The position numbers and the translations under genes were made by a program. Below the pieces are notes generated by a model. That model was given only the letters and a program-made list of their open reading frames with translations, was not told the origin of the DNA and did not search any database. This document shows positions 25,025 to 47,371 of a stretch of DNA of 64,000 nucleotides, in pieces; the stretch's first letter is position 1, and every line of letters starts with the position of its first letter. Source of the stretch: an uncultured Chloroflexia bacterium (GTDB lineage: Bacteria > Chloroflexota > Anaerolineae > Fen-1058); contig CAWJPR010000018.1 in assembly GCA_963844815.1 (NCBI GenBank), forward strand, positions 462,498-526,497, in the 5' to 3' direction.

Positions 25025-25670
25025 TCAGACGGCCGCCCGGATGAACTCCTGCGCCCGCTCGGTCAGTGCGGCCCAATCGCGCGCTGCGATCAACTGCTTA
25101 TCGACCAAATTGCCGCCCACGCCCACCGCAAATGCGCCGTGCTCCAGGTACGCTTTGAGGTTGCCGCGATCGATCCCGCCGGTCGGGATCAGGCGCAGAA
25201 ACGGCAGCGGCTCGCGCACATCCTTGAGGTAACTCGGCCCCACCGACCGCGCCGGAAACACCTTGACGGCGCTCGCGCCCGCTTCCCACGCGGCGAGGAT
25301 TTCCGTCGGCGTGAGCGCGCCCGGCATCACGGCCACCTTCAGTCTGCCGGCACGTTTCGATCGTCGCGAAGTTCGTCGCCGGCGACACGATGAACTGCGC
25401 GCCCGCCTCGATCGCAGCTCGCGCCTGATCGGCGTTCAGCACCGTGCCGAGGCCGATGACGGCTTCACCGCGATCGAATTCCGGCAGCGCGGCTTTCACC
25501 TCGGCCAGCGCCTTGATCGCAGCGGGGTTGCTCAGCGTAAACTCCAGCGCGCGGATGCCGCCGGCGAGCAGCGCTCGCGACAGATCGATCGCCGTGCTCA
25601 GATCGTTCAGGCGCACGATGGCAATCATGCGGTGAACCCCGATGATTTCGATAACTTCAGCTATTGACAT
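25025..25670 (-). CDS. eda: 2-dehydro-3-deoxyphosphogluconate / 4-hydroxy-2-oxoglutarate aldolase (KDPG aldolase); apparent frameshift near 25340
   Basis: ORF 25098-25670 (MSIAEVIEIIGVHRMIAIVRL...FIVSPATN) and ORF 25025-25336 (MPGALTPTEILAAWEAGASAVKVFPA...) together make a full Eda. Confidence 0.8.
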
Positions 25671-25812
25671 GGATTGCTCCGACGTGATTCACCCTCACCC
25701 CTACACCCCTCTCCCTGCGGCCAGCCGTCCCGCCGCTGTGCGGACACGGGAAGGGAGAGGGGAATGCGCGCTTACCCTTCTCCCTGGTAGGGAGAAGGGT
25801 GGGGGATGAGGG

Positions 25813-26929
25813 TCAATATCCTCCGTACTTCCTCGCCGCTTCAAACAAAGCGATGACGTTCCGCGCGGGCACGTCGGGCTGCAAGTGGTTCGCCGGGGCG
25901 AGCACGTAGCCTCCGCCCGGCGCGAGAACCCGCACGCGCTCCTGCACTTCCGCTTCAATGCCGGCCGCGCTGCCCTGCATCGTCTGCTTGATATCGATCG
26001 CGCCCCAGAAGGTCAGTTTGTCTCCGTATTTCGCTTTGACGCCCGCCATATCCACGTTGGGCAGCGGCTCGAGGCAGTGAAAGACATCCACGCCCAGATC
26101 GATCAGGCGGCCCAGGAACGGCTCCATGCGCCCGTCGGAGTGGAACAAGATCTTCACGTGCGGCGCGGCCTCTTTGATCAAGCCGATGAGGCGGCGATAG
26201 GCCGGCGCGAAAAACCGATCGAACATCCTGGGCGAGATCAGCGGATTCGCCGCCGCGTAGTCGTCGCCGGGCAGTTCGATCATATCCAGATAGTCGCCGG
26301 CCGTGTCGAGATAGATCTCCAGCAGGCGGCACAGCACCGTCGTCACCTTGTCGATCAGCGCCGTGACAAATTCCGGATTCCGGCCCAGATCGATCATGAA
26401 CTGATCCATGCGGCGCAGGCTGTTGCAGCGTTCCAGCGGTCCGTAGGAATCACACGGGCGGCCGGCCACCGCAAAATCAGTTTTTTCTTTCAGATACTTT
26501 GCCCGCTCGCGCAATTCATCACGCCGCACCAGCTGCTCCACGGCGGGCCACGCGAACCGGTCGAGGTCGTCCACGGTCGCGGTTTCCAGCGGATAGTTCG
26601 TCGGGCCGAGGTAAATTCCCGCCTGTGTCCAGCCCACGCCCCACGCGTCGATCGCGCCGCCGCGCGCGGGACCGCCCAGGTCGGTGAAGCCCAGCCACAC
26701 ATGGCGCACATCGGTGCCCAGCGCGTCCAGCACGCGATCGTCGTAATAGTTGACCGTGTGGCCTAAACGGCGGCGAAACGGCGGCTACGGGATCGCCCAA
26801 CTTCAGTTCCCTCAGCAGTTCAAAGTACAGCGCATCGGTGATCCCATACGCGCCGCCCCAGATCGCCGTGGGCACCCGATCGGGTGGCTGATGATTGATC
26901 GCCGTCAAGACTCGTTCGCGATGGTCCAT
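25813..26929 (-). CDS. uroporphyrinogen-decarboxylase (URO-D) superfamily protein (MtaA/CmuA-like methyltransferase or decarboxylase); apparent frameshift near 26775
   Basis: The N-terminal piece in ORF 26519-26968 (MDHRERVLTAINHQPPDRVP...) and the body in ORF 25813-26733 join into a URO-D-like TIM barrel. Confidence 0.7.
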
Positions 26930-26995
26930 GCTGCCCCGTCTCTTTACGCAGTACGCACTACGCGCCACGTATTGCGTAGTGCGTAAACCGTTTCA

Positions 26996-28081
26996 TCATT
27001 TCTTCCACAAATCGATCGGCTTCTCGACCTGCGGCGGCTGATATGGCCACTCAATCTTGCGGCCCTCGCCCGCCGACTGATACGCCGCGTAGATGATCTT
27101 CAACACTTCGCGGCCGTCCTCGCCCGTCTCGATGGGCGTCTCTTGGCCCGCCACGCAGTTGACGAAGTGCTGCATCTCCTGCGGGAAGCCATAGTTCCAC
27201 GTCTCTTCAAACGTCGTGAATGTCCAGCCTTTCGTCGTGTCGGCTTTCTCCACGGCGTAACCGTAGCCCGTGTTGCTGTACGTGGTTAAGGCATTGCCGT
27301 GCAGCAAGTCCGCGCGCGTGTGCCCGTGCGAGCCGTAGATTTCCACGCGATCATCGACGCCGCCCAACTTGGCCCACGAGTTTTCGCACACGGCCATGCA
27401 GTTGCCTTCGTATTCGATCACGGCGACTGAATGATCTTCGCCCTGCGTCTTGTCGCCGTGCACGAACGTGCCCATCGTAGCCAGGACGCTCCTCACCTTG
27501 GGCTTGCCCAACACCCAACGCGTGTACTCGATCGAGTGGCAGCCCATGTCCAGCAGCACGCCGCCGCCCGATCGCTTCACATCCCAGAACCACGGCATGT
27601 GCGGACCCGGGTGCTCTTCCATCTGCTTGGCGAGGAAGACCTTGCCCAGCGCGCCTTCATCGACCAACGTTTTGGCCCGCACGTACTTCGGCGCGAACAA
27701 TAATTCCTCGGCGTACAACAGCAGCACGCCGTGCTTCCGGCATTCGTCGATCATCTGATCGGCTTCTTCGAGCGTCTTGCACAGCGGCTTCTCGCAGATC
27801 ACGTGCTTGCCCGCGCGCGCCGCGGCGACAGCAACCTGCGCGTGGAGATCGTTCGGGATCGCCACGGTTATCACGTCGATCTCCTTCAGCGCCAGCAGAT
27901 CGCGATAGTCATCGAAGGCGTGGGGGATGCCGCGCTCTTGGGCAAAGTGCGCGGCCTTGCCCGGCGTCGGCGACGCCACCGCCACGACCTCGGCGTTCTG
28001 CACGAAATGCCTGAACGAGAACTCATGCAGATCGGTCACAAACCCCGCGCCGATCAATCCGACTTTAACGGTCTTGCTCAT
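26996..28081 (-). CDS. Gfo/Idh/MocA-family NAD(P)-dependent oxidoreductase
   Basis: VKVGLIGAGFVTDLHEF Rossmann N-terminus; ICEKPL motif. Confidence 0.85.
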   Translation of the reverse strand: MSKTVKVGLIGAGFVTDLHEFSFRHFVQNAEVVAVASPTPGKAAHFAQERGIPHAFDDYRDLLALKEIDVITVAIPNDLHAQVAVAAARAGKHVICEKPLCKTLEEADQMIDECRKHGVLLLYAEELLFAPKYVRAKTLVDEGALGKVFLAKQMEEHPGPHMPWFWDVKRSGGGVLLDMGCHSIEYTRWVLGKPKVRSVLATMGTFVHGDKTQGEDHSVAVIEYEGNCMAVCENSWAKLGGVDDRVEIYGSHGHTRADLLHGNALTTYSNTGYGYAVEKADTTKGWTFTTFEETWNYGFPQEMQHFVNCVAGQETPIETGEDGREVLKIIYAAYQSAGEGRKIEWPYQPPQVEKPIDLWKK

Positions 28082-28107
28082 GGTTGGGCCTCCTGTGTTT
28101 TAGGTAA

Positions 28108-28210
28108 GTGTCGAAGCATTCTGAGCGGAGTCAGCGCAGTCGAAGAATGCGGGCTCCCCGACAGCGCGTCCTTCGACTACGTCCCTTTGGGACTCCGCTC
28201 AGGATGCTGG
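28108..28210. repeat. REP/MITE-like nested palindrome, family A variant (GCATTCTGAGCGGAGTC ... GACTCCGCTCAGGATGC)
   Basis: intercistronic between the SIS and Gfo/Idh genes. Confidence 0.65.
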
Positions 28211-28223
28211 TGGACCATCTTGA

Positions 28224-29264
28224 TCAAAAGCCTGTTTCGCTGCTGGTCACCTGCGCCGCCACACGGAACTCGCCCGGCGTGAAACCGCGCCATTCCGCTA
28301 AACGCATGGCCGCGCACTGTACCGGAATGATTTCGATCAATGGCGCAAGGGAAGCCGTCACCTCAGGCGTTGCCCACCAACCCTCAGCGGCTTCCTCCGG
28401 CCCAATTAATCTTGCCTGCCCGCCCAGCCGCTTGAGATCGTGCGCCAGCGCGATATTCAACGCGCGCGTGGGATCGCGCGGCGCAAACACGATCGCCCGG
28501 AAATGCTCGTCGACAATCTCCACCGGCCCGTGCCGGAACTGCGCGGCCTCCATCGGCACCGAGGGGAACTTGGCCACCTCATTGAACAACAGCGCGCCTT
28601 CGCAGATCGACGCTATCGCGCGGCCACGTCCCAGCAAATGGATCGCCTGCGCTCCGTCGAAAAATGGGCGCCACTCAGCACTCTGATCAACGCACCGCGG
28701 GACGTAGTCAGCCAGCGATCGGATCGCGGTCTCCAGCTCAGCGTGCGCTGCAGCGAAGGTGTTCAGCAGCGCTGCGCCCAGCAGGCGGAGCGTGATCGAC
28801 GTCGCGGTGTAGCTCTGCACGGCCACAAGATGATCCTTGCCGCCGTGAATCAAGACCGTCGCATCCGCCTCACGCGCCAGGGTACTGCCGGCCACATCCG
28901 TCACACCGACGATGCGTGTCCCCTGCGCCTTCAAAACGGGCAGCAACTTCAGCGTCTCGATCGATTCGCCGGAGCGCGAGACCAGCACGGCCACCGCGTC
29001 ACGATAAGCGTCATGCTGATAGTGCAGCAGTTCAGCCGTATCAATCACGTTTGCAGCAGCGCCCTGTTGAGCCAGCTCCGCATTCAGCCCATAACACGCA
29101 TACAACGAGCTGCCCATGCCGCTGAAGAGCAGCCGCTGGCCGGTCATCAAACGCGCGGCGTCGTGCAGCGCCGGCTTGCCCACGCCGCAGTGATAATCAA
29201 CGGTCTCGGCCAGGGACCGCGGCTGATTGAGAATATCCCGCAAGAGAGGAGAGTCGTTAATCAT
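28224..29264 (-). CDS. SIS-domain sugar-phosphate isomerase/deaminase (AgaS / GlmS-C-terminal-like, two SIS domains)
   Basis: LLFSGMGSSLYA and VLVSRSGESIETL SIS motifs; start placed at MINDSPLL. Confidence 0.75.
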   Translation of the reverse strand: MINDSPLLRDILNQPRSLAETVDYHCGVGKPALHDAARLMTGQRLLFSGMGSSLYACYGLNAELAQQGAAANVIDTAELLHYQHDAYRDAVAVLVSRSGESIETLKLLPVLKAQGTRIVGVTDVAGSTLAREADATVLIHGGKDHLVAVQSYTATSITLRLLGAALLNTFAAAHAELETAIRSLADYVPRCVDQSAEWRPFFDGAQAIHLLGRGRAIASICEGALLFNEVAKFPSVPMEAAQFRHGPVEIVDEHFRAIVFAPRDPTRALNIALAHDLKRLGGQARLIGPEEAAEGWWATPEVTASLAPLIEIIPVQCAAMRLAEWRGFTPGEFRVAAQVTSSETGF

Positions 29265-29410
29265 ACCGAACCTTTGGACACGGATGACACGGATCATACG
29301 GATTACTGAAATCAATGTCGAATCCGTGTTGATCCGTTCAATCCGTCAAACATATGCGGTGCACGAAGTCCCCATCTTTTAGGGGAATGCTCCCGTCCGT
29401 GTACAAAAAA

Positions 29411-30331
29411 TCAGCCTATCTTTAGAACGCGTGCGGGATTGTGAACCAGCATATCTTGAATCGCATCTTCGCTCAGTCCTTCGGATCGCAGCCACGGGAT
29501 GAAGCGCCACAAAATGTACGTCAGCCCCGGCCCGCCGCCTGTGCCGTAACTGGGCCAGTAGGACTTGCGCGCCAGATCGCCGCCGAGGACGATCTGGCGG
29601 CCGAAACCCGCCTTCACGGCGCGCAGGATGAACTCCACGCGCTGGCTGTCCGGCGCGTACTTCTCTTTGCTGATCTGATCGTAGCTCAACGTCACGCCCG
29701 TCTGCCACAGCGCCACGTGGTACTCCCAGTCGAGTTTGCGATCGACGTGACCGATGATGATGCGCTCCGGCGGCACGCCGTCCGCCATGAGCAATTGAAT
29801 CTGCTCCAGGCCCATCGTGCCGACTTCGGTGTGCGTGGAGATGGCCGCGCCCGTGCGCTGCTGCGCGCGCGCCGCCGCCCGAAAGACCTTCTCCTCACTC
29901 GCGGTGATGGTGTTCAAACTCGACGCGGCTTTGATCACGCCGGCCTTGATGTCCGTGCCGTCGACGCCTTCCATCACATCGCGCGCAAAGCGATCGGCCA
30001 ATTCGTCGATCGATTTGTTCGTGACGAAGCGCGCCGAGAACTTGTCTTTGTGCAGCCCGGTCGTGGCGATGAGGTGAATGCCGGTCGCTTCAGAGACGCG
30101 CTTCATCCCCGGCGCATTGCGGCCATAATCGGCGGGCGTCATATCGACCAGCGCGCAGCCGCCGGCCTGCTTGAACCACGTCAATTCTTGAAGCGCCGCC
30201 GCTTCGCTGTCCATCTCCAAATCGCGATCGCTTACGTCGGGCGGCGGGGAGCACAGCACGTGCTCGTGCGGGTAGCACACGCCGAGGTCAGAAGGATCGA
30301 TGTCACCACGCACGGTTCGAATGAAAGGCAT
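29411..30331 (-). CDS. phosphotriesterase-family (PTE/PHP) amidohydrolase; likely a sugar-lactone(phosphate) lactonase
   Basis: CYPHEHVL (HxH), ...STHTEVG..., IIGHVD metal-ligand pattern of the PTE family. Confidence 0.75.
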   Translation of the reverse strand: MPFIRTVRGDIDPSDLGVCYPHEHVLCSPPPDVSDRDLEMDSEAAALQELTWFKQAGGCALVDMTPADYGRNAPGMKRVSEATGIHLIATTGLHKDKFSARFVTNKSIDELADRFARDVMEGVDGTDIKAGVIKAASSLNTITASEEKVFRAAARAQQRTGAAISTHTEVGTMGLEQIQLLMADGVPPERIIIGHVDRKLDWEYHVALWQTGVTLSYDQISKEKYAPDSQRVEFILRAVKAGFGRQIVLGGDLARKSYWPSYGTGGGPGLTYILWRFIPWLRSEGLSEDAIQDMLVHNPARVLKIG

Positions 30332-30372
30332 TATTTCTCCACAAATTCACACGAATCTTCACAAATACGAAT

Positions 30373-30449
30373 GTGTCATTCCGAGCGAAGCGAGGAATCT
30401 CTTCAGGTCACGCAGAGACCCCTCGCCACTCCGCGGCTCGGGGTGACAC
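30373..30449. repeat. REP/MITE-like palindrome, family A (GTGTCATTCCGAGCGAAGCGAGGAATCTC ... GGCTCGGGGTGACAC)
   Basis: intercistronic between the HD and PTE genes. Confidence 0.65.
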
Positions 30450-30471
30450 CGTAAACCAAGTGGAATTTCCG

Positions 30472-31048
30472 TTAGAAATAGCCAAACGAGTCGGCCTCAA
30501 ACTTCGCAAAGAGATCGTCCATGTCTGCCAGGCGCTGCACGGCGATCTCTTTCGATGTGGCGAGGCACAACAGGCCGGGCAGTTTCGCTCGGCGCTTGCG
30601 GCTGATGTCATAGGCCTGCCGCAAATCCCTGGCATTCTTGGATACATCGCGCAGCACGCCGACCACGCCCAGGAAGTCCAGCGCATCCGCGTCGCTCAGC
30701 AGTTGAACTTCGAGGCAGCGCGCCGCGTTATCCGCGTGATGGAATTCGATGCAGTCCAGGATCAACTTCGCATCGTCCGGCGTATAATCTCTGCTCTGCG
30801 AGAAACGCCTCGGCCACCTGACGCGAGCGCAGCGCATGATCGACGCCCGGCTGCGCCCATTTGCCGTACGCACCCCAATCGTGCAGATGCGCCGCCACCC
30901 ACAGCGCGTCGGCGTTGTACGATTGGCCTTCGCCGATGATCGAAATCAACTGCAGCAAGCGCCGCGTGTGATTGATGCCCCACGGCCCGCCGTATTCTTC
31001 GGTCAGTCGCACAAGTTCATCGCGATCGATGTTCATGAGGCAATCCAT
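30472..31048 (-). CDS. HD-domain metal-dependent phosphohydrolase; apparent frameshift near 30800-30870
   Basis: N-terminal piece MNIDRDELVRLTEEY...AAHLHDWGAY (HD motif) in ORF 30728-31456; C-terminal piece in ORF 30472-30873. Confidence 0.6.
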
Positions 31049-32250: not shown

Positions 32251-32258
32251 GTGGTCAT

Positions 32259-33227
32259 TTACTGTCTGAATCCTCGCTGCCGCCCGTAGATCGAGATCAT
32301 GATGAGCAGCGTCGCGCCCAGGACCATGCGCCGCACCGATTCGGGCATCTGCATCGTGGTGAGCAGACTGGTGATCAGCGTCAGCACCAGCGCGCCCGCC
32401 ATCGTGCCCCAGTAGCTGCCCTTGCCGCCCGAGAGGAGCGTGCCGCCGACCGCGACCGCCGCGATCGACGGGAATAGAAACGGATCGCCGATACGAATGT
32501 GAACCACGCCCGTATTGCCGACGACGAGGAAGCCGCCCAGTCCGGCCAGCAGTCCCGCCAGCGCGTAAGTGCCTAACACCATGCGGGTCACATTGACGCC
32601 CGACAGGCGCGCGGTGACCCGATTGGTCCCGATGGCAAACAAATGCTTGCCGAACGTCGTGCGCTCCAACAGCAGCCACATCAACAGCCCAAAGATGATC
32701 CAGATCACGATCGCGCCGGGGATGATTTTGAGAATATTCGGGCGCGCAATCAAATCCGTCATGATCGGTGCGACGGAGCCGCTGACGTTGCCCTGCGTGA
32801 TGACGAGGATCAAGCCGCTGACGACGCCCGCCATGCCCAGCGTCATGACCAGCGGCGAGATCTTGAGGAAAGCAATGCCCGCGCCATTCAGAAACCCGAT
32901 GGCGGCCCCGACGACTAACACGGCCAGCAGGGCCGGCAGCACATTCTCGTTGCGGCCGCTGACGATCGAGTAGGTAATGATGGCCGTCAAGGTTACGACC
33001 GCGCCGATGGACAGATCGATGCCTTCGCCGCCGCTGATGATTACCAAGGTTTGTCCAGCAGCGATAATACCTAAGAACACCGAAATACGGACGATGTTGA
33101 TCGCCGTCCGAGCAGCGATGTCCAGGTCGCTGCCAAAGCCATTGGGCAACAGGCCGCTTAAGAGAAACAACACTACCGCCAACAGCACGGCGGCTACCGG
33201 GGGGGAGATGGCCAGTCGCTTCTTCAT
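32259..33227 (-). CDS. sugar ABC transporter permease (ribose/CUT2 type)
   Basis: about 10 TM helices; start at MKKRLAIS. Confidence 0.85.
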   Translation of the reverse strand: MKKRLAISPPVAAVLLAVVLFLLSGLLPNGFGSDLDIAARTAINIVRISVFLGIIAAGQTLVIISGGEGIDLSIGAVVTLTAIITYSIVSGRNENVLPALLAVLVVGAAIGFLNGAGIAFLKISPLVMTLGMAGVVSGLILVITQGNVSGSVAPIMTDLIARPNILKIIPGAIVIWIIFGLLMWLLLERTTFGKHLFAIGTNRVTARLSGVNVTRMVLGTYALAGLLAGLGGFLVVGNTGVVHIRIGDPFLFPSIAAVAVGGTLLSGGKGSYWGTMAGALVLTLITSLLTTMQMPESVRRMVLGATLLIMISIYGRQRGFRQ

Positions 33228-34195
33228 GCGCGCTTCCTCCGGATCAGGCTCAAGATGCCGGGCATCGCCAGCGCCAGCACGATGATGGCCGCGTTGACAA
33301 ACGTCTGCCACCACGATTCGACGTTGGCGAATGAAATGATGTTGCGAATCAAACCCAGAATGATCGCGCCGATGATGGCGCCAGCCACGCCGCCCTTGCC
33401 GCCGCTGAGGATCGTCCCGCCGATGACGACCGCCGTAATCGCCTGCAACGTCAACGCATCGCCGACCCCGGCGTTGCCGGAACCGGTCAGCAACGTGATA
33501 GCAATGCCGCCGAACGCCGCCATCAATCCTGAAATAACGTAGGTGCTGAACTGCACGGCGCTGACCGGCACACCCGTTTCATAGGCCGCTTCGCTATTGC
33601 CGCCAACCGCAAAGAGGTAACGGCCAAAGCGGGTTTGCCGGGTCACATACCACGCCAGCAAAATCAGGAAGATGAGGTAAAACGCCAGCGGCAGGCCTAA
33701 TGGCGTAGCCTCGCGATAAAACACGGTGAACATCGAGGGCACGCCACCGCCGGGATTCGGGAGGATGAACAACGCCAGACCCGCAAAAAGGAAACTGGTC
33801 GCGTACGTCGTGATGATCGGCTGCAAGCGCAGATAAGCGACGAAGAAGCCATTGATGGCGCCCGCGATCATGCCGACAAGCAGCGCCACGAGCATCCAGA
33901 GCACGGCCTGCCCCGGATCGCCCTTCAAGCCGATCTGCGTGGCCAGCAAAGCGTTGACCACGGACACGATCGCCCCGACCGAAATATCGATGCCACCGGC
34001 CAGGATGACCACCGCCTCTCCCGCTGACAGGAGGATCAAAGGCAGGAACACGCGCATGTTGTTGTTGAGCGTTTTCGGATCGAACAGGTCGGGCTGCAAA
34101 ACAAAATTGACGACCACCGCGACGACCAGCAGTCCCAGGGCAAAGAGATACGGATTGCGATAAGTGAAGTGCTGCCAGCGGAAGTTTTTCATGGC
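33224..34195 (-). CDS. sugar ABC transporter permease (ribose/CUT2 type), second copy
   Basis: Paralogous to the downstream permease; start at MKNFRWQ. Confidence 0.85.
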   Translation of the reverse strand, partial: AMKNFRWQHFTYRNPYLFALGLLVVAVVVNFVLQPDLFDPKTLNNNMRVFLPLILLSAGEAVVILAGGIDISVGAIVSVVNALLATQIGLKGDPGQAVLWMLVALLVGMIAGAINGFFVAYLRLQPIITTYATSFLFAGLALFILPNPGGGVPSMFTVFYREATPLGLPLAFYLIFLILLAWYVTRQTRFGRYLFAVGGNSEAAYETGVPVSAVQFSTYVISGLMAAFGGIAITLLTGSGNAGVGDALTLQAITAVVIGGTILSGGKGGVAGAIIGAIILGLIRNIISFANVESWWQTFVNAAIIVLALAMPGILSLIRRKRA

Positions 34196-35724: not shown

Positions 35725-35730
35725 ATTCAT

Positions 35731-35770
35731 GTCATCCTTGCGAGGGCGTGATAGCCCTCGCAAGGATGAC
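35731..35770. repeat. perfect 17-bp inverted repeat (GTCATCCTTGCGAGGGC / GCCCTCGCAAGGATGAC) between the binding-protein and ATPase genes; REP-family-A-like intercistronic hairpin
   Basis: read directly from sequence. Confidence 0.8.
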
Positions 35771-35839
35771 GCTTGTTCATCCTCCCGGCCAAGGAAAGCT
35801 AACCCTGGCAGGAAACACTGAGTTGGAGGTGAGAGTTTA

Positions 35840-38161: not shown

Positions 38162-38965
38162 TTACTTCACTGTCCAGCCACCATCTACGGTCAACACCGC
38201 ACCCGTCACAAACTTTGCCTGCTCCGAAGCGAGATACAAGGCCGCTTGTGCCACATCACCCGGCTGTCCGAAATCGCCCGTCAACGGCTGAAGTTCACTC
38301 AAGCGCGCGCGAATCGCCTCGTTCGCCTGGGCGCGTCGGCTCATCGGGGTGGCGATCAACCCCGGACAGATCACATTCGCGCGAATCCGCTGCGGCGCGT
38401 AGTAGGCCGCGATCGAGCGCGTCAGGCTGATGATGCCGCCCTTGCTCGCCGCGTAAGCGTGCGTCGCGAAATCTTCATCGCCGCCCACCAGCCCCAACAC
38501 CGACGACAGGTTGACGATCGCGCCGCCGCCGGCTTTCAGCATTTCACGGATCGCATACTTGCAGCCCAGGAACACGCTCTTCAAATTGATTGCCAGCACG
38601 CGATCCCACGCTTCTTCCGTGCAGTCGGCCGTTGGCCCATCGCCCCACTTGCGGCCGCTCAACCCCGCGCCGTTGAAGATCACGTCGAGCCGGCCAAACT
38701 CTGCAACCGTACGTTTTACAGCGGTTTCAACATCCTGCGCGACGCTCACATCCGTTCGCGCGAAGATCGCGCCGCCGCCGTTCGTTCGAATCTCCTCGAC
38801 CGTCTGCTGCCCGCCCGTTTCATCCAGATCGAAGATCGCGACGCGCGCGCCTGCCTGTGCGAACAGCAGCGCGGTGGCCCGCCCGATGCCGCTGGCCCCG
38901 CCCGTCACGATGGCCACCTTGCGATCCAACACTCGTTCTGCCACAATCACTCTATCCACCGTCAT
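38162..38965 (-). CDS. SDR-family short-chain dehydrogenase/reductase
   Basis: TGGASGIGRA cofactor motif; YAASK catalytic motif. Confidence 0.85.
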   Translation of the reverse strand: MTVDRVIVAERVLDRKVAIVTGGASGIGRATALLFAQAGARVAIFDLDETGGQQTVEEIRTNGGGAIFARTDVSVAQDVETAVKRTVAEFGRLDVIFNGAGLSGRKWGDGPTADCTEEAWDRVLAINLKSVFLGCKYAIREMLKAGGGAIVNLSSVLGLVGGDEDFATHAYAASKGGIISLTRSIAAYYAPQRIRANVICPGLIATPMSRRAQANEAIRARLSELQPLTGDFGQPGDVAQAALYLASEQAKFVTGAVLTVDGGWTVK

Positions 38966-39094
38966 GGCCAGGAGGCCACAGGCCGACGACACATGCGCCT
39001 GCGTTGCGCTTGGCGCAGTGCAGGTGAGCAATCCCGGTGCCAATCAACAAGAGATTGCTTCGCCGCTGCGCGGCTCGCAATGACGTTTCCGCGT

Positions 39095-39877
39095 TTAATC
39101 ATCGCCACATCCGTAAACGCGCCTGACCCGCGATCGATAATCGTCGTAGACTTCGTCAAACCGCTGCGACGAGGCCGCCTCTCCGATGAAGAAGCTGCTC
39201 GTCAAAACCGGCGGCATCTTGCCCAGCCGTGTGAGCCGATCGGCCACCAGCACCTTGAGCGCATTCGCGACCAGCGCATGTCCGATGGTGGAGCCCGGCC
39301 CAATCGGATCTTCCAGCCCTTCAATCTTCACCAGCGCGTCGCCGCCCGGCGTGCCATTATCGATCACGACGTCGGCGGCATCCGGCAGGCGCTGGCCCGA
39401 ACTGTGCCTGATCGGCGAATGCATACAATGATCCAGGGACACCACCGCCATCACCGGCAGCCCGCGCCGCTGCGCGCCGAGGGCCACTTCTACCACCACT
39501 TCATTCACGCCGCTGTTGGAAAAGATCAGAAAACTATCAGGCGGCTCCAGCACGAAATTGCGCAGAATCACTTCGCCCAGTCCCTCGACATGTTCGAGGA
39601 ACATCGCCTGACGTTGGCCATTGGCGCCGACGACGGGATTGTGATAAGTCAGCGACAACTCGACGATGGGGTGAAAACCCGGATAACTGCCATGGCGCGG
39701 AAACATCTCTTCAACCGGGATGCGCGAGTGTCCCGTGCCAAACACGTGCACCAATCCGCCACTGGCAATCGAGCCGGCGCAAATCTCAGCCGCACGCTCC
39801 AACGCCTCCATTTGCGTGGCGCGAATGCGATCCAGAATCTTCTGCACCTCGTCGAAGTAAGTTGCTGCTGGGCTCAT
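39095..39877 (-). CDS. SIS_2 (UPF0309-like) sugar-isomerase-domain protein
   Basis: LVHVFGTGHSRIPVEEMFPR signature. Confidence 0.6.
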   Translation of the reverse strand: MSPAATYFDEVQKILDRIRATQMEALERAAEICAGSIASGGLVHVFGTGHSRIPVEEMFPRHGSYPGFHPIVELSLTYHNPVVGANGQRQAMFLEHVEGLGEVILRNFVLEPPDSFLIFSNSGVNEVVVEVALGAQRRGLPVMAVVSLDHCMHSPIRHSSGQRLPDAADVVIDNGTPGGDALVKIEGLEDPIGPGSTIGHALVANALKVLVADRLTRLGKMPPVLTSSFFIGEAASSQRFDEVYDDYRSRVRRVYGCGDD

Positions 39878-39906: not shown

Positions 39907-41097
39907 CTACGGTATTTTCTGCACAATCTCGCCCGTCGTTTTATCCTTCAAGATAAACTTCGTCTGGCCGTCCGGCAACACTTCCTGCTTGATCAAGAAG
40001 TACTGCGCGTCGAATTCGGTCAGGCCCGCTTTCGTCGCGATTTCCTCTGAACCGCGCCACACCTCCAACTGCACCGGCTCCCACTTCTTCGACGCGATCG
40101 AGCGATAAGCCGCATCCATGATGGCATTCACCACGTAGCCGTCGTAGAAGGTCTCCATCGGCGCCTGGCCCGCGTCATACGAATTGAGCATGTCCATGAA
40201 CATCGCTTCGTAACCCAGGGCCGCGACTTCATCGCCGACCGGGAACAGCCAGCCGGAATCGCTCTCGCTCTTTTCGGAGACATAGCCGCCCTGCCCCGGC
40301 GCGGAGAACATCTCGAAGCCGGTGCGCAGCCAGTGGTTCAGCCAGATCGTGCCTTCCGTGCCGGAGACTTCATCGCGCAAGTCCATGCCGCCGCGGAACG
40401 TCCACGACACTTCAAACTGCGACAGCGCGCCGCTGGCATAGCGCACCAGCCCGACCGCGCTGTCTTCCGCTTCGATGGGATGCACCTGCGTGTCCGCCCA
40501 GCACATCACCTCCAACGGTTTCACATCTTTGCCGATGAAGTTTCGGCCGATCTCGATGCAGTGGCAGCCCATGTCCACGATCGCGCCGCCGCCCGAGAGT
40601 TCCTTCTTCCAGAACCAATCGCTGTGCGGGCCGGGGTGTGTCTCGCGCGAGCGCGTCCACAACACCTTGCCGATCGAGCCATTCTTGACCGCTTGCAGTG
40701 ACTTCAGCGTCTTGGGAGTGTAAGCCAGGTCTTCGAGATAACCGTGGAAGACGCCCGCCTTCTCGACCGCGGCCAGCATCTCTTGCGCTTCGGCGGCCGT
40801 GCGCCCCAGCGGCTTGGTGCAGAAGATCGCCTTGCCGGCCTGCGCGGCCAGCAGCACCGCTTCCCTGTGCAGATAATTGGGCAGCCCCACAATGACGACG
40901 TCGACATCGGGGCGCTGCACCGCCTCGGCAATGCTCGTCGTCCAGTGGGGAATGCCCCATTTCTGCGCGAAAGCGCTGGTTTCATCCGCGCGCCTGGCGC
41001 AGACGACGGCAATCTGATCGCGCCCGCGCTTGGCCTGCAAACTCATCGTGTAGAACATGCCGATGAGGCCGGTGCCCAACATCGCGATGTTTGCCAT
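39907..41097 (-). CDS. Gfo/Idh/MocA-family oxidoreductase
   Basis: [16 protein letters not shown] Rossmann N-terminus; 396 aa. Confidence 0.85.
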
Positions 41098-41145: not shown

Positions 41146-41949
41146 TTACCTGGCGGCTACAACGGCAATCTCCACCTGCGCGCGATCGCCGCGCTGCTTG
41201 GCGACGCCATGCTCCACGGGCCGGCCTTCCACGTCATACATGGTGCTGTGAATGACTAACAGGGGCATGCTGGCTTTGACGTGCAGCAGCCGGGCCTCTT
41301 CCGGCGAACAGGGAGCCGCCTCGGCCAGGCGCACGCCATGATCGAGCCGGATGCCGTATTTGGATTGCATCAGCGCGTAGAGCGAAGCCGTGGTCAGATC
41401 TTCGCGCTCCAGTCCCGGAAACAACTGGGCCGGCAAATAGTTCGTGGCGATGTCAAACGGCTTATCGTCGACGTAGCGCAACCGCACGAATTTCACGACC
41501 GGGGCGCCCAGGTTCAGGCCCAACTCAGCAGCGACACGTTGATCCGCCGGCGCCAGGGCCTGTTCCAGCACGCGGATTTTGACCCCCAGGCCGCGCCGCG
41601 CCATATCGGCGTGAAAGCCAGCCGTCTCCTGCGCCCACTGCACGCGGAATTTGTGCGGCGAAACAAACGTCCCTTTGCCCTGCACCGTGTACAGCAGGCC
41701 CTGATGGACCAAATCGTTCAGCGCTTTGCGCACCGTGATGCGGCTGACCTCGTGCGCCTGGCACAATTCGTTCTCAGACGGGATCGGCTGGCCGCTCTGC
41801 AGCAGGTCAATCTGCTCACGCAAGGTTTCACGCAGCTGATAATACTTCGGCAGTGGAGCGGCTTTCCCGCCGGGTTGACTCTTGGGCAGGCGCGTTGTCG
41901 TATTCACGCTGGAGATTTCCCGGAGTCTGAAGTGAGTACAACTCGTCAT
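41146..41949 (-). CDS. GntR/HutC-family transcriptional regulator (winged HTH + UTRA effector domain)
   Basis: LPKYYQLRETLREQI...SENELCQAHEVSRITVRKALNDLVHQGLLYTVQGKGTFV. Confidence 0.8.
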   Translation of the reverse strand: MTSCTHFRLREISSVNTTTRLPKSQPGGKAAPLPKYYQLRETLREQIDLLQSGQPIPSENELCQAHEVSRITVRKALNDLVHQGLLYTVQGKGTFVSPHKFRVQWAQETAGFHADMARRGLGVKIRVLEQALAPADQRVAAELGLNLGAPVVKFVRLRYVDDKPFDIATNYLPAQLFPGLEREDLTTASLYALMQSKYGIRLDHGVRLAEAAPCSPEEARLLHVKASMPLLVIHSTMYDVEGRPVEHGVAKQRGDRAQVEIAVVAAR

Positions 41950-42181
41950 GTTGTCATTACAAGCCAAGTGCATTATACTATAATTTATCAACCCGGACGC
42001 CCGCAAAAAAGCGGCGTAACTCCCACAAAAACGCGCGGTGGCGGCCAACTTACGAACATTTCACTATAACTTACGAAAATTCGTGAAGTAAGTCATGTGA
42101 CTGATTACACATTGATCACATGACAAGCGTACCGAAATTGTGTTACGCTGGAAGCCAGCCCACCGGGGTCGATGGCGCTGC

Positions 42182-43438
42182 ATGCCTAGAACTGCTGCCA
42201 AACCGATCGCTCCAACGCTCCCCACTGCCCCGCTGATTGTGTCAACGCACGCGGCGCAGATCATCGCGGCGCTGCGCAAGCGCGAAGCGATCTCGCGCAC
42301 CGATCTGGCGCGCCTGACGGGCTGGTCGCGCCCGAAAGTCACGGCCGAGGTGGGCAAGCTGGCGAAGCGCAACCTCCTGGTCGAAAGCGGTGAAGGCGCC
42401 TCGCAGGGTGGGCGGCGGCCGCGCTTGCTGAAGTTCAACTATGAATTAGGCTATATCGTCGGCGTAGACATCGGCGCAACGAGCATGGATATCGCGGTCG
42501 CCGATCTCAACGCGCAGGTTCTGCAGCGCGACAGCGGTCCGGCTGATGTGCGCGACGAGCCGCTCGAGCTGCTGGGCGAAGCAAAACGGCGCGCGCTGGC
42601 CCTGCTGGCCAGACGTGACATTCGACCCGAACAAGTTCTGGGCGTGGGCGTGGGCGTGCCCGGTCCGGTGGACTTCATCAAAGGGGTATTAGTTGCGCCG
42701 CCGTTGATGCCCGCCTGGGAAGGCTTTTCCATTCGCAGCTATTTTCACCCGATCTTTCCTTCGGCGTTCATCGCCGTCGACAATGACGTCAACATCATGG
42801 CGCTGGGTGAATTGAAGGGCGGCGCCGGAATGGGCCAGGATGATTTCATCTTCGTCAAGATCGGCACGGGCATCGGCGCGGGCATCGTGTGCCACGGCGT
42901 CATTCATCGCGGCCACACCGGCAGCGCGGGAGATATCGGGCACATTTGCGCCGATCACCAGGGCCCGATCTGCCGCTGCGGCAACGTCGGCTGCCTGGAA
43001 GCGATGGCCGCCGGGCCGGCGATTGCCGATCGGGCACTGGCCGCCGCGCAGAATGGCGCGAGCCCGATCCTGGCGCACAAGCTCGCCGCGAGCCAGGGCG
43101 TGCTGCGCGCCGAGGATGTGGCCGCGGCCGTTCGCGAGGGCGATCACGCCGCCATCGAAATCGTGCAGCGCAGCGGGCAGCTCATCGGCGATGTGTTGGC
43201 CGGGCTGGTGAACTTCTTCAATCCCAGCCTGATTCTGGTGGGCGGCGGCGTCGCCAACATTGGCAACCAGCTGTTGGCGTCGATCCGCCAGGCCGTGCTG
43301 CGCCGCTCGACGGCGCTGGCGACGCGCGAATTGATCGTGAGCTATTCGCCGATGGGCGGCGAAGCGGGCATGACCGGCGCGATTCATCTGGCCCTAGAGC
43401 ACTTGTTTGTCGTGCAGGATAAACCTTCAGGAGTGTGA
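42182..43438 (+). CDS. ROK-family transcriptional repressor (NagC/XylR-like; N-terminal HTH + ROK sugar-binding domain)
   Basis: ISRTDLARLTGWSRPKVTAEVGKL HTH; ROK Zn motif CRCGNVGCLEAMA. Confidence 0.85.
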   Translation: MPRTAAKPIAPTLPTAPLIVSTHAAQIIAALRKREAISRTDLARLTGWSRPKVTAEVGKLAKRNLLVESGEGASQGGRRPRLLKFNYELGYIVGVDIGATSMDIAVADLNAQVLQRDSGPADVRDEPLELLGEAKRRALALLARRDIRPEQVLGVGVGVPGPVDFIKGVLVAPPLMPAWEGFSIRSYFHPIFPSAFIAVDNDVNIMALGELKGGAGMGQDDFIFVKIGTGIGAGIVCHGVIHRGHTGSAGDIGHICADHQGPICRCGNVGCLEAMAAGPAIADRALAAAQNGASPILAHKLAASQGVLRAEDVAAAVREGDHAAIEIVQRSGQLIGDVLAGLVNFFNPSLILVGGGVANIGNQLLASIRQAVLRRSTALATRELIVSYSPMGGEAGMTGAIHLALEHLFVVQDKPSGV

Positions 43439-43439
43439 C

Positions 43440-44147
43440 ATGCCACAAACCCCGACCTTGAACAGCAGAACCATTACCTACGAGCAGCTCGCCAAAACGA
43501 TCGATCACTCGCTGCTGCGGCCCGAACTCACCGAAGCCGACGTCGTCGCCGGCTGTGACTTGGCCGCGCAGTATCACGTGGCCTCGGTGTGCGTGAAGCC
43601 CTGCCACGTCAAGCTGGCCAAGAAACTGCTGGCCGGTTCCGACGTCGCCGTGGGCACCGTCGTCGGATTTCCGCACGGCAACTCGACGATGGCGACCAAG
43701 GTGTTTGAAACGCAGGAAGCCGTGGCCGCCGGCGCCACCGAAATTGACATGGTCATCAACATCGGCGAGCTGCAATCGGGCCACGCGGACTATGTCCGCA
43801 ATGAGATCCGCGCCGTGGTCAATGCCGCGCACCCGCAGGCGATCGTGAAAGTGATTCTGGAGAACGCTTACCTCACGCACGCCGAGAAAGTGCTGGGCTG
43901 CCAGTTGGTGGAGGAAGCCGGCGCGGATTTCGTGAAGACCTCGACCGGCTTTGCGCCGACCGGCGCAACGGTGGAAGACATCACCTTGATGCGGGCGTCC
44001 GTGGGGCCGCAGGTGCAGGTCAAGGCCGCGCACGGCGTGCGCACGCTCGATCAACTGCTGGCCATGATCGATGCCGGCGCCACCCGCTCGGGCGCCACGG
44101 CGACGGCGACGATTCTCGACGAATTCAAGCAACGCCACGGAGGATAA
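43440..44147 (+). CDS. deoC: deoxyribose-phosphate aldolase
   Basis: [15 protein letters not shown]...VCVKP...VKTSTGF, the catalytic Lys region of DeoC. Confidence 0.85.
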
Positions 44148-44148
44148 C

Positions 44149-45306
44149 ATGCCAGATTTGAAAGTAGGCGTGATCGGCACAGGGTTCATCGGGCCAGTGC
44201 ATGTGGAAGCGCTGCGGCGTCTGGGGATCGAGGTGGCGGCGGTGGCCGGACCGCGCGCCGACGGCGTGGCCGAAAAAGCCCGGGCCCTGCGCATTCAGAA
44301 GTACTACGAGACAGCCGAAGCGTTGATCGCCGATCCGGCGATCGACGTCGTGCACATCACCTCGCCCAATCACGCGCATTACCCGCAGGCTAAGGCAGCG
44401 CTGCTGGCGGGCAAGCATGTGGTGTGCGAGAAGCCGCTGGCGATGAACTCGGCCGAATCGAGCGAGCTGGTGAAGTTGGCCAAGGACGCGCAGCGGGTTA
44501 ACGCCGTTAACTTCAACATTCGCTTCTATCCGTTGTCGCATCAGGCGCGGCAGTTGGTGCAGAGCGGCGAGATCGGCGAAGTGTACATCGTGCAGGGATC
44601 GTATCTGCAGGACTGGCTGCTGCTGCCCACCGACTGGAACTGGCGGCTGGAACCGCAGTTCAGCGGCGAAATGCGCGCCGTGGCCGACATCGGATCGCAT
44701 TGGCTCGATCTGACGACGTTTATCACCGGTCTGCAAATCGAAGCCGTGTGCGCCGATTTTGCGACGTTCTTGAAGACGCGCCGGAAGCCGGCGCAGCCGG
44801 TGGAAACCTTCACGGGCAAACTGCAGACCGCCGCGGAATACGTGGAGCAGCCCATCAACACCGAGGACTATGCCACCGTGATGCTGCGTTATAACAACGG
44901 CGCGCGCGGCGTGATGACGGTCGCGCAGGTCTGCGCCGGGCGCAAGAATCGCTTAAGCTACGAAATCGACGGCGCGCGCGCGGCCCTCGTCTGGGACGGC
45001 GAGCGGCCCAACGAGCTGTGGATCAACCATCGGGAACGGCCCAACGAACTGCTGTTGAAGGATCCCGCGCTGCTGGCGCCCGAAGCGCGGCAGTTCGCGT
45101 CCTATCCCGGCGGGCACAACGAGGGCTTTCCCGATACGTTCAAGCAGCTGTATCATGCCATCTATCGCTACATTGAAGCGGGCGACTTCAGCGCCCGGCC
45201 CGACTTCCCGACCTTTGAAGATGGTCAGCGCGCCCTGCGGGTGGGTGAGGCGATCTTCCGCAGCGCGAAAGAGGGACGCTGGGTAAATATGAGCGAAATC
45301 GGCTAG
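44149..45306 (+). CDS. Gfo/Idh/MocA-family oxidoreductase
   Basis: [22 protein letters not shown]; VCEKPLAM motif. Confidence 0.85.
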
Positions 45307-45318
45307 TAATGAACAAGC

Positions 45319-45360
45319 AATGAGTAACGAGTAATTCACTTGTTACTCATTACTCGTTAC
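45319..45360. repeat. family-B repeat: GAGTAACGAGTAAT and inverted TTACTCATTACTCGTTAC, forming a hairpin downstream of a TAG-TAA-TGA triple stop
   Basis: read directly; 17 nt upstream of the isomerase start. Confidence 0.65.
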
Positions 45361-45376
45361 GCATTAGGAGGGAATC

Positions 45377-46291
45377 ATGAAACTCGGATTGATGAGCGCA
45401 GCTTTCCCGAACATGTCGCTGGAAAATCTCGCCAGGTGGGCGGCCGGCAATGGGTTTGAGATGCTGGAACTGGCCTGCTGGCCGGTCGGCAAAGCCGATC
45501 GGAGGTACGCGGGGGTTACGCACGTCGACGTGGCTACCCTGACACCCGCCCAGGCCAGGAAGATTCAGGGCCTGATCAAGAAGAACGGCCTGGAAATCTC
45601 TTCGTTAGGCTATTACCCCAATCCGCTCCATCCCGATCTGCAGCACCGCAAAGGCGTGATCGAGCATCTCAAGAAAGTCATCACGGCCGCGGAACTGCTC
45701 AACGTCCCGGTGGTGGGCACGTTCGTCGGGCGCGACAAGGACAAGACGCTGGAAGAGAATCTGGACGAATACGCCAGGGTGTGGCCCGCGATTGTGAAGT
45801 TTGCCAACGACCACGGCGTGAAGATTGCGATCGAGAACTGCCCGATGATCTTCTCCAACGACGAATGGCCCGGCGGCAACAACCTGGCGATCTCGCCCTA
45901 CGTGTGGCGCAAGATGTGGGAGATCATTCCCGATCCGAACTTCGGCCTTAATCTCGATCCGTCGCACCTGATCTGGCAAATGATCGATGTGGTGCGCGTG
46001 GTGTACGAGTTCGGCCCGCGCATCTTCCACGTGCACGCCAAGGACCTGCGTATCGATCGGGAGCAGCTGTATCAGCGCGGCGTGATGTCGCTGGGCATGG
46101 GCTGGCAAATTCCGCGCCTGCCCGGCCTGGGCGATGTGAATTGGGCGCAGTTCATCAGCGCTTTGTACGGTGCGGGCTACGACTACGCGATCAGCATCGA
46201 GCACGAAGATCGCGCCTTTGAGAAGACTGAGGAGTTGATCAAGCGCGGCTTCCTGATCTCGCGCGACGCATTAAGGCCGTACATTCATTAA
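45377..46291 (+). CDS. sugar phosphate isomerase/epimerase (xylose-isomerase-like TIM barrel)
   Basis: 304 aa; IAIENCP and ISIEHEDRAFE motifs. Confidence 0.8.
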   Translation: MKLGLMSAAFPNMSLENLARWAAGNGFEMLELACWPVGKADRRYAGVTHVDVATLTPAQARKIQGLIKKNGLEISSLGYYPNPLHPDLQHRKGVIEHLKKVITAAELLNVPVVGTFVGRDKDKTLEENLDEYARVWPAIVKFANDHGVKIAIENCPMIFSNDEWPGGNNLAISPYVWRKMWEIIPDPNFGLNLDPSHLIWQMIDVVRVVYEFGPRIFHVHAKDLRIDREQLYQRGVMSLGMGWQIPRLPGLGDVNWAQFISALYGAGYDYAISIEHEDRAFEKTEELIKRGFLISRDALRPYIH

Positions 46292-46297
46292 ACCACC

Positions 46298-46383
46298 GTC
46301 ATTGCGAGCCGCGCAGCAGCGAAGCAATCTCCCGCGCAAGTCATGAGATTGCGTCGTCGGCCTGTGGCCTCCTCGCAATGACT
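46298..46383. repeat. REP/MITE-like palindrome, family A (GTCATTGCGAGCCGCGCAGCAGCGAAGCAATCTC ... GAGATTGCGTCGTCGGCCTGTGGCCTCCTCGCAATGAC)
   Basis: intercistronic between the isomerase and glucokinase genes. Confidence 0.75.
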
Positions 46384-46396
46384 CCCACATAACCCC

Positions 46397-47371
46397 ATGA
46401 GCAAAGTCATCGGCGTCGATCTGGGCGGAACCAATCTGCGAGCGGCGGTGATCAACACCGACACCGGCGCGTTCGAGCACCTGACCTCGGTGCCCACCCT
46501 GGCACGCGAAGGCCACGCGGCGGTCATGGACCACATGGCGCGCTTGATCGAGCAGGTCATCGCCGACAGCGGCTTGAGAAAATCCGATATCGGCGGCGTG
46601 GGCATCGGCGTGCCGGGGGTGCTCGATCTGGAGCACGGCCTCACCGTCTTTCTGCCCAACCTCCCCGGCACGTGGCCCAACGTTCCGCTGCGGGACACGA
46701 TCGCCGATCGGGTGCAGCTGCCCGCGTTCCTGATCAACGATGCGCGCGCCATGACGCTGGGTGAATATTCCTTTGGCGCAGGGCGCGGCGTCGATACGAT
46801 CGCGTGTCTGGGCATCGGCACCGGCATCGGCGGCGGACTGGTGATCAATGGCCGCCTGCATCTCAACCTCGGCGGCACCTCGGCAGAATTAGGCCACACC
46901 GTCATCGATATGAACGGCCCGCTGTGCGGCTGCGGCACGCGCGGCTGTCTGGAAGCGTATGCCTCGGGCCCGGCCATCACCGCGCTGGGCCTGAAGGCCG
47001 TGGTGCAAGGCGCCACGACGCGCATTGGCGAGATGGTGGACTACGATCTCAATCGCATCACGCCGCAAGTGATCTTCGAAGCGGCTCGCGCGGGCGATGC
47101 GATTGCGAAAGACATCTATGAGCAGGCCGGGTTCTACATCGGCGTGGCCGTATCCAACATCATCATTGCCGTCGGGCCGCAGCGCGTCGTCATCGGCGGG
47201 GGTGTCTCGCAAGCAGGCGATTTGCTGCTGGATCCGATCCGGCGCACGGTGGCGGAGCGCGTCAACGTCACTTCGATCGAAAAGGTGCAGATCGTGCGCG
47301 CTGAGCTTGGCCCTAACGCGGGACTGATCGGCGCGGGAGTGTGGGTCAGAGATCAAAATCAGGTGGGATAG
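46397..47371 (+). CDS. ROK-family glucokinase
   Basis: [18 protein letters not shown]; Zn motif [15 protein letters not shown]. Confidence 0.85.

Follow-up and report, generated by a model that had tools for sequence, protein, structure and literature searches.

The gene cluster considered here spans positions 25025-47371 of a 64,000-nucleotide stretch of DNA (hereafter the window; contig CAWJPR010000018.1 of assembly GCA_963844815.1) from an uncultured Chloroflexia bacterium (Chloroflexota, Anaerolineae, Fen-1058), and several of its enzymes have described counterparts. The folate-independent core methionine synthases MesA-D share with the MetE-like zinc enzyme of this cluster a single Meth_synt_2 barrel that retains both the HCEC zinc site and the S/E/D homocysteine site. 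MesD was solved with bound selenomethionine (3RPD), and in MesC and MesD there is a precedent for methionine synthases whose methyl donor is unidentified (Price et al. 2021, PMC7857596). The Streptomyces enzyme NagS (SCO4393) is an N-acetylglucosamine-6-phosphate (GlcNAc-6P) dehydratase of the UPF0309 family that is inhibited by 6-phosphogluconate and in which His53, Arg64, Glu94 and Asp179 are essential (PMC12680351). The SIS_2 enzyme of the cluster belongs to the same family and keeps the catalytic tetrad and the phosphate-binding serines, but its gene is part of a catabolic operon instead of neighbouring dmdR1. The phosphotriesterase (PTE)-family hydrolase shares its fold with the COG1735 phospho-sugar lactonases and with E. 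coli Php, its best solved relative being 3pnz (E = 3e-63), which we take to be Lmo2620, a lactonase acting on phosphorylated sugar lactones, followed by Php; however, the cluster enzyme misses the NCBIfam equivalog cut-offs (172 vs 630 bits for NF045706, and 201 vs 486), and in other phyla a metallo-beta-lactamase (MBL)-fold hydrolase stands beside the MetE-like gene. The uroporphyrinogen decarboxylase (URO-D)-like protein finds its best structural match in MtaA (methylcobalamin:coenzyme M methyltransferase, 4ay7), but no gene for a corrinoid protein was identified in the cluster. The levoglucosan (LgdA/B/C) and Bacteroides glycoside (BT2156-2160) routes resemble it in placing a Gfo/Idh/MocA dehydrogenase beside a xylose-isomerase-like barrel, and in having a second Gfo enzyme, a glucokinase-type ROK kinase and an ABC importer; to our knowledge, both lack DeoC and a URO-D/MtaA-fold protein.

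Two recurrent gene modules and their merger

Genes were chosen by third-position GC bias and named with Pfam and NCBIfam. A preliminary description of this DNA had proposed a sugar uptake and catabolism cluster at 25025-47371, and the families it listed are all found there; the genes are co-localised and flanked by repressors, and parts of the set are kept together in other genomes. In the genome-neighbourhood comparison that it suggested as a check, the cluster genes were found grouped again in relatives and in distantly related genomes, so that their grouping is not a matter of chance. The cluster can be counted as a variant of the oxidative, lactone-type sugar pathways. We read it as one regulon under the control of repressors (GntR/HutC and ROK) that would import and degrade a neutral sugar-like compound, probably a substituted one, and that consists of two merged modules and an inserted CUT2 importer, the phosphosugar being broken down by way of oxidation, a lactone and a homocysteine-dependent dealkylation (probably a demethylation). 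As a whole, this reading falls slightly short of an even chance of being correct, and dealkylation by the MetE-like enzyme, taken on its own, is a tentative proposal from the conserved residues that we consider possible but not probable.

Module A, a recurrent set, comprises the Gfo/Idh/MocA dehydrogenase Gfo2, the UPF0309 SIS_2 enzyme, a short-chain dehydrogenase/reductase (SDR), the MetE-like enzyme, a hydrolase of the PTE (or MBL) type and the aldolase Eda. We compared 80 loci encoding MetE-like relatives with the window proteins by tblastn and by clustering of open reading frames (ORFs), and counted neighbours within 10 kb in the 69 loci whose MetE-like relative is ~45-88% identical. Of these 69 loci, 43 contain an MBL-fold hydrolase, 40 SIS_2, 37 an SDR, 31 a ROK kinase, 17 a Gfo enzyme, eight a PF12831 flavoprotein and six a PTE; these counts are approximate, the ORF caller over-calling in GC-rich loci, and tblastn served as a cross-check. 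The MetE-like gene with adjoining sugar genes occurs in Chloroflexota, Bacteroidota/Rhodothermales, Acidobacteriota, Verrucomicrobiota, Planctomycetota and one metagenome-assembled genome of Coatesbacteria, i.e., module A loci cover at least five phyla, and the MetE-like/SIS_2/SDR/hydrolase set is found in soil, freshwater and sludge bacteria. The gene order in Bacteroidota is SDR, ROK, SIS_2, MetE-like, MBL; the minimal Anaerolineae form (L032) is a run of six genes (Gfo2, SIS_2, SDR, MetE-like, PTE and Eda), an 88%-identical Anaerolineae locus (L031) carries the full operon of the window uninterrupted and without the central transporter, and a locus of the same genus (L127, genome G413) has the gene order of the window. 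The hydrolase gene adjoins the MetE-like gene or is one gene away in most module-bearing loci. In two loci (L035 and L041) a PTE and an MBL-fold hydrolase both adjoin it, so that the two are not simple substitutes for each other; the queries used recovered no orthologue of the MBL hydrolase or of the PF12831 flavoprotein from this genome.

The association is also seen across whole genomes. In a sample of 400 other Chloroflexota genomes, the MetE-like gene is present in 36 (including one unpublished genome, G227, on which nothing else rests), SIS_2 in 35 and both in 20, compared with ~3 co-occurrences expected if they were independent, a comparison that is not a formal test, the genomes being related. 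In all 20 genomes with both genes, the two lie on one contig at most 17 kb apart, and where the MetE-like gene is not adjacent to SIS_2, five genomes still hold a SIS_2 relative elsewhere (53-68% identity).

Module B, recurrent in Anaerolineae, comprises DeoC, Gfo3, the xylose-isomerase-like barrel, a ROK kinase, the URO-D-like protein and, again, Gfo2. The order ROK kinase, URO-D-like, Gfo2 is kept in ~8 of 17 URO-D-like loci, all from Anaerolineae, and two loci (L132 and L133) show the complete order DeoC, Gfo3, TIM barrel, ROK kinase, URO-D-like, Gfo2. Of these 17, only the locus from the same genus has a MetE-like gene nearby, and across the loci compared the URO-D-like and MetE-like genes share a locus in this genus and just two further cases. 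The preliminary description had singled out the two as a pair in need of an explanation, which is not borne out by their company elsewhere: the URO-D-like gene travels with the ROK kinase and Gfo2, the MetE-like gene with SIS_2, the SDR and the hydrolase. The idea of a conserved pair was accordingly rejected, the two belonging to different recurrent gene sets, and because they sit in different modules their pairing here is a by-product of module merger in this lineage and not a functional partnership, which narrows what needs explaining by experiment. Gfo2 is common to both modules, adjoining SIS_2 and the MetE-like gene in some loci and the URO-D-like gene in others. One genome (G234) has the regulon and a URO-D-like gene with no MetE-like match, and in another (G142), which also has the regulon, neither query was matched; for this reason both barrels look like accessory steps.

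The MetE-like enzyme and its partners in module A

The MetE-like protein scores 83.5 bits against PF01717 (Meth_synt_2, cut-off 21), consists of one barrel of ~340 residues without the N-terminal folate-binding barrel, and has its nearest solved structure in MesD (3RPD, 131 bits). The functional positions of methionine synthases are seven in all, i.e., four zinc ligands and the Ser, Glu and Asp that hold homocysteine (PMC7857596). In the MetE-like family, the zinc His-Cys-Glu-Cys set is invariant in 70 of 70 relatives, and the homocysteine-site residues (E. coli S433, E484 and D599, mapped via Ser22, Glu73 and Asp188 of 3RPD) are present in 69-70 of the 70. With no zinc or homocysteine residue lost, methyl transfer stays a plausible role for this enzyme, and this part of the earlier proposal stands, although the pairing with the URO-D-like protein does not. 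A further set of invariants is specific to the family and absent from MetE and MesD (H94, D95, R142, K277, N278, Y279, R316 and W317); R142 occupies what we take to be the position of the pterin-stacking Trp of MetE, and, with three basic residues close to the active site, the co-substrate may be an anion, e.g., a phosphosugar. The differences from MesD thus include motifs of its own (HDQR, R142, KNY and RW) as well as linkage to sugar-phosphate genes and not to MesX or a corrinoid protein. The 131 bits to 3RPD also contrast with the 390-560 bits given for MesD proteins, an indirect comparison since those were measured against ACIAD3523 (PMC7857596).

With such a complete active site, the protein might simply be a fifth core methionine synthase of the folate-independent Mes type, with a donor unrelated to the sugar genes and a linkage owed to co-regulation or inheritance. 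All seven methionine-synthase residues, the selenomethionine-bound MesD as nearest structure, the unidentified donors of MesC and MesD and the roughly one third of loci without sugar genes near the MetE-like gene are in keeping with this, but linkage to SIS_2, SDR and hydrolase genes that extends over at least five phyla and holds in all 20 Chloroflexota genomes having both genes, the MetH already encoded in the genome and scores below every curated methionine-synthase equivalog cut-off (202 vs 406 bits for PRK04326, 156 vs 392 for PRK09121) make it quite improbable. The MetE-like gene is the only Meth_synt_2 gene in this genome, which has a full MetH, as do four of five other genomes carrying the MetE-like gene; a housekeeping methionine synthase role was rejected because MetH is present, and assignment to MesD or to another named methionine synthase because the cut-offs are not reached.

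The presumed partner of this enzyme, SIS_2, scores 277 bits against PRK02947 (cut-off 135) and matches SCO4393 (PDB 9eol) with a phmmer E value of 7e-26. All 41 SIS_2 relatives compared retain the NagS residues H53, R64, E94 and D179 as well as the phosphate-binding serines, and the substrate-contact positions are changed (Ser91 to Met, Leu or Ile; Asn228 variable). Orthology to NagS was rejected, since the specificity residues differ, and we read SIS_2 as an enzyme that would carry out NagS-type chemistry on a different sugar phosphate. These residues also bear on the possibility that the substrate is an amino sugar or a glycated amine (of the Amadori or opine kind), the amino-acid part of which would be bound by the MetE-like site. 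Such a substrate would suit the amino sugar used by NagS itself, the resemblance of the double-SIS protein (of the GlmS/FrlB class), the GntR/HutC-UTRA regulator, the xylose-isomerase-like barrel and the kinases to the frl system, and the NagB/Pgl-like gene and PF12831 flavoprotein of related loci. We nevertheless regard it as distinctly unlikely: the NagS specificity residues are not kept, the double-SIS protein is outside the conserved core (seen in L031, L127, L044 and L059), and CUT2 ribose-type and MFS Sugar_tr carriers typically serve neutral sugars, not conjugates with amino acids.

For the regulon reading, from the gene content, the conservation of the two modules and the retention of catalytic residues, we infer the following order of steps. 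After uptake by the CUT2 ABC system, the ROK kinase would produce a sugar phosphate, which the NagS-like SIS enzyme, by means of its His/Arg/Glu/Asp set, would ring-open and isomerise or dehydrate. The MetE-like enzyme, with zinc-activated homocysteine, would then take an alkyl group, most likely a methyl, from the activated intermediate and yield methionine. The glucose-1-dehydrogenase-like SDR would oxidise C1 to give a phospho-lactone, the PTE (or, in other phyla, the MBL-fold hydrolase) would open the lactone, and Eda would cleave the 2-keto-3-deoxy-phospho-acid, a compound like 2-keto-3-deoxy-6-phosphogluconate (KDPG). In one concrete version, a 2-O-substituted hexose 6-phosphate would be converted into an enol ether by NagS-like dehydration, the methyl would pass to homocysteine, the 3-deoxy-osone phosphate would be oxidised, and hydrolysis of the lactone would give KDPG. 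The combination of dehydrogenase, lactonase, isomerase and aldolase, from which the preliminary description had deduced an oxidative pathway, fits these genes, as the SDR passes the cut-off of the glucose-1-dehydrogenase subfamily (NF005559, 230 vs 215 bits) and the PTE has the phospho-sugar lactonase Lmo2620 as its nearest solved relative. Removal of an alkyl substituent is the simplest view of the MetE-like enzyme, because its homocysteine site is complete, it travels with the set and it is missing from some genomes that have the regulon.

In its most specific form, which we consider doubtful, the MetE-like enzyme would be a homocysteine-dependent demethylase of a phosphorylated sugar intermediate, i.e., a fifth kind of folate-independent methionine synthase that takes its methyl straight from methylated carbohydrates or cyclitols without oxygen or corrinoid, its NagS-like UPF0309 partner activating the ether by dehydration. 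Sugar breakdown might in this way be linked to the methionine cycle, e.g., in an oxygen-independent use of methylated plant or algal sugars. The literature searched yielded nothing relevant on sugar demethylases of the URO-D-like or MetE-like kind or on the demethylation of pinitol, and Erwinia uses pinitol without a separate demethylase. The MetE-like zinc barrel, the UPF0309 relative of NagS and the URO-D/MtaA-fold protein are three widespread subfamilies without an assigned reaction, and solving the MetE-like/SIS_2/SDR/hydrolase set would annotate thousands of genes.

A number of points weigh against the dealkylation route and the regulon reading that includes it. Sugar methyl ethers are poor methyl donors unless activated, and we know of no case in which homocysteine receives such a group from a sugar. 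The scheme gives no role to Gfo1, Gfo2, the double-SIS protein, the PF12831 flavoprotein or the MBL hydrolase, and leaves the joint occurrence of PTE and MBL in L035 and L041 unexplained. The MetE-like gene stands among unrelated genes in ~25 of the 69 loci, 16 Chloroflexota genomes with more distant MetE-like copies gave no SIS_2 match at the threshold used, and four cluster genes are out of frame in this assembly. The MetE-like, UPF0309 and URO-D-like subfamilies found here have no member with a known substrate; NagS, the sole characterised UPF0309 enzyme, acts on GlcNAc-6P, and UPF0309 homologues at 26-36% identity were inactive on it (PMC12680351).

The URO-D-like protein and the enzymes of module B

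Intact relatives of the URO-D-like protein measure 370-378 residues, and its gene in the window is recovered by tblastn as two pieces in different frames. For a relative with 97% identity, the AlphaFold model reaches a pLDDT (predicted local distance difference test) of 92.7, and Foldseek searches with it placed MtaA 4ay7 first (TM score 0.70-0.77), followed by URO-D (~0.7) and then MetE. At the sequence level no match was obtained to proteins of solved structure at E <= 0.001, and the protein atlas had nothing beyond 'URO-D family' for it. The motifs FHSDG, HC.EP and NH.QPD are invariant. The score against the MtaA equivalog model is 47 vs a cut-off of 400, H-S-D stands where we take the zinc motif of MtaA to be H-x-C, and the arginine motif RQAGR, which we presume to mark URO-D, is apparently missing from the consensus as judged by eye. 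For decarboxylation, one of the roles that the preliminary description had offered, we found nothing in favour.

By its gene content, module B might follow the logic of the 3-keto routes for levoglucosan and glycosides, i.e., oxidation, elimination or hydration, reduction, phosphorylation and a cleavage of the deoxyribose-phosphate aldolase type. Gfo3 has levoglucosan dehydrogenase as its best match over the full length (NF052479), but with 181.6 bits vs a cut-off of 650 its identification as that enzyme was rejected, which also sets the locus apart from the levoglucosan route; the xylose-isomerase-like barrel, with weak matches to IolE and IolO, is kept beside Gfo3 in other loci. It may be that the whole cluster serves an unmodified anhydro-sugar, deoxy-sugar, glycoside or cyclitol, and that the MetE-like and URO-D-like barrels do chemistry other than alkyl transfer, such as zinc-assisted hydration, ring opening, isomerisation or decarboxylation of a keto intermediate. 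Several features are compatible with this, namely the family matches of Gfo3, of Gfo1 and Gfo2 (IolG) and, weakly, of the barrel; the pairing of Gfo3 with the xylose-isomerase-like barrel, which is the layout of the LgdA/B/C and BT2156-2160 3-keto routes; a His/Cys/Cys/Glu zinc set that presumably also occurs in alcohol dehydrogenase, where it binds oxygen ligands; and H-S-D in the place of the supposed H-x-C of MtaA. The family scores, however, lie far under the equivalog cut-offs (181 vs 650, 189 vs 355), and we consider an unmodified substrate unlikely in comparison with the substituted sugar of the regulon reading.

Gene inventory, transport and reading frames

The cluster consists of 15 genes on the minus strand (42048 down to 25025) and five on the plus strand, the last of which ends at 47371 (Table 1). 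The minus-strand order is GntR/UTRA, Gfo2, SIS_2/UPF0309, SDR, tandem RbsB-like binding protein, ABC ATPase, two CUT2 permeases, MetE-like, HD-like, PTE, double-SIS, Gfo1, URO-D-like and eda; divergently, across a 91-bp spacer, follow the ROK regulator, DeoC, Gfo3, the xylose-isomerase-like barrel and the ROK kinase. The flanks are unrelated: one carries genes for an alcohol dehydrogenase, a flavodoxin and an unknown protein, the other the hdr locus.

Table 1 Features of the cluster at positions 25025-47371 of the window (bits, cut-offs and Pfam/NCBIfam models as given; aa, amino acids)
Feature	Position	Strand	Match or remark
eda, KDPG/2-keto-4-hydroxyglutarate (KHG)-type aldolase, +1 frame slip ~25343	25025..25670	-	PF01081 + TIGR01182
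URO-D/MtaA-fold protein, ~371 aa if intact, slip ~26762-26790	25813..26929	-	PF01208
Gfo/Idh/MocA Gfo1	26996..28081	-	best match IolG, TIGR04380 188.8 bits vs cut-off 355
Double-SIS protein, like the GlmS isomerase half (class of FrlB, AgaS, NagB-II)	28224..29315	-	PF01380 twice; GlmS C-terminal half 113.8 bits
PTE-family hydrolase, probably phospho-sugar lactonase	29411..30331	-	PF02126, 232 bits
HD-like ORF in two frames, slip ~30780-30870	30472..31036	-	HD domain 17.8 bits, below cut-off
Single-barrel MetE-like zinc enzyme, ~337-340 aa	31078..32095	-	PF01717
Two CUT2 (ribose-type) ABC permeases	32259..34309	-	PF02653; RbsC, YjfF, GguB below cut-offs
ABC ATPase, two ATP-binding domains	34189..35763	-	PF00005 twice
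Tandem double RbsB-like substrate-binding protein, 710 aa	35840..37972	-	PF13407 twice
SDR, glucose-1-dehydrogenase-like, true start probably ~38930	38162..39043	-	PF13561
UPF0309 SIS_2 phosphosugar enzyme, NagS relative	39095..39877	-	PRK02947
Gfo/Idh/MocA Gfo2	39907..41097	-	best match IolG, below cut-off
GntR/HutC-type regulator, UTRA domain	41146..42048	-	PF00392 + PF07702
9-bp inverted repeat GTCATGTGA-N15-TCACATGAC	42092..42124	.	in the spacer of the divergent GntR and ROK regulator genes; candidate operator
ROK-family regulator, NagC/Mlc-like, N-terminal helix-turn-helix	42140..43438	+	PF00480 + weak MarR_2; NagC family 158.7 bits, below cut-off
DeoC, deoxyribose-phosphate aldolase	43407..44147	+	TIGR00126 247 bits vs equivalog cut-off 117.3
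Gfo/Idh/MocA Gfo3	44071..45306	+	best match levoglucosan dehydrogenase
Xylose-isomerase-like TIM barrel	45377..46291	+	PF01261
ROK sugar kinase	46397..47371	+	PF00480; ROK_glcA 223 bits vs cut-off 260

Two entries of the preliminary description had to be amended. ROK proteins are present, but they number two (one kinase and one regulator) and not three; the HD phosphohydrolase does show an HD-domain match, but a weak one, of 17.8 bits against a Pfam cut-off of 22 and in one fragment only. No counterpart of the HD-like ORF was matched by tblastn in L031 or L127. At its position in L031 (10966-12042 of that locus) lies an ORF of 358 residues that has, by eye, the look of a membrane protein with a histidine-rich tail.

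The importer points to a neutral sugar or cyclitol as substrate, because either CUT2 ABC components or, in related loci that have them in place of the ABC system, carriers of the major facilitator superfamily (MFS Sugar_tr) accompany the module. The gene of the binding protein contains an internal repeat of 1 kb with 89% identity, and the double form is also present in G234, from another Anaerolineae family (L116 15064-17022; 78% identity over ~650 residues), so that the duplication is not private to this genome; L031, L052 and G076 have a single-domain binding protein. Comparison with solved structures gave only matches of at most ~116 bits, to binders of ribose, xylitol, threitol and inositol, and no clue to the ligand.

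Single-base frame slips, on which the preliminary description is silent, affect four of the 20 genes (eda and the URO-D-like, HD-like and MetE-like genes), that in the MetE-like gene, judged against the start of the same-genus copy, being one extra nucleotide in codons 2-3 (~32090) that puts the ATG at 32095 out of frame. The URO-D-like and MetE-like genes are intact in L031 and in G413 (L127), and the 6.6-Mb assembly is made up of only 20 contigs; most slips were therefore taken as consensus errors, of which eda may be an exception. The two halves of eda match PF01081/TIGR01182 at 68.7 and 64.8 bits in different frames, and this broken gene is the sole PF01081 gene of the assembly. It is intact in L031 and L032, whereas the copy in G413 (L127 10657-11122) has lost its N-terminus and is frame-shifted at another position, an intact eda lying elsewhere in that genome; the truncated copy is 59-71% identical to Eda of L031 (neighbours ~88%) and 61-70% identical to that of the window (neighbours 87-92%). 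If the slips were real mutations, the cluster would be decaying in this lineage and the pathway would be non-functional here. The four out-of-frame genes among 20 and the truncated eda of G413, shifted elsewhere and diverged far beyond its neighbours, lean that way, but with unbroken copies of the URO-D-like and MetE-like genes in both G413 and L031, the frames otherwise undamaged, a strong third-position GC bias and so few contigs, we hold decay to be highly improbable.

Scanning for promoters and terminators gave nothing above chance. The window has a G+C content of ~61%, and its stretch 6000-12000 is AT-rich (~0.46 vs 0.61 in the rest of the window) and may be foreign DNA. A palindrome with an 18-bp stem (35730-35771) lies between the genes for the binding protein and the ATPase. 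Two 35-nucleotide copies of a sequence like a repetitive extragenic palindrome (REP), inverted and 97% complementary, are found at 39051-39085 and 46297-46331, i.e., in intergenic spacers of both operons, and a REP-like repeat overlaps the first codons of the SDR ORF.

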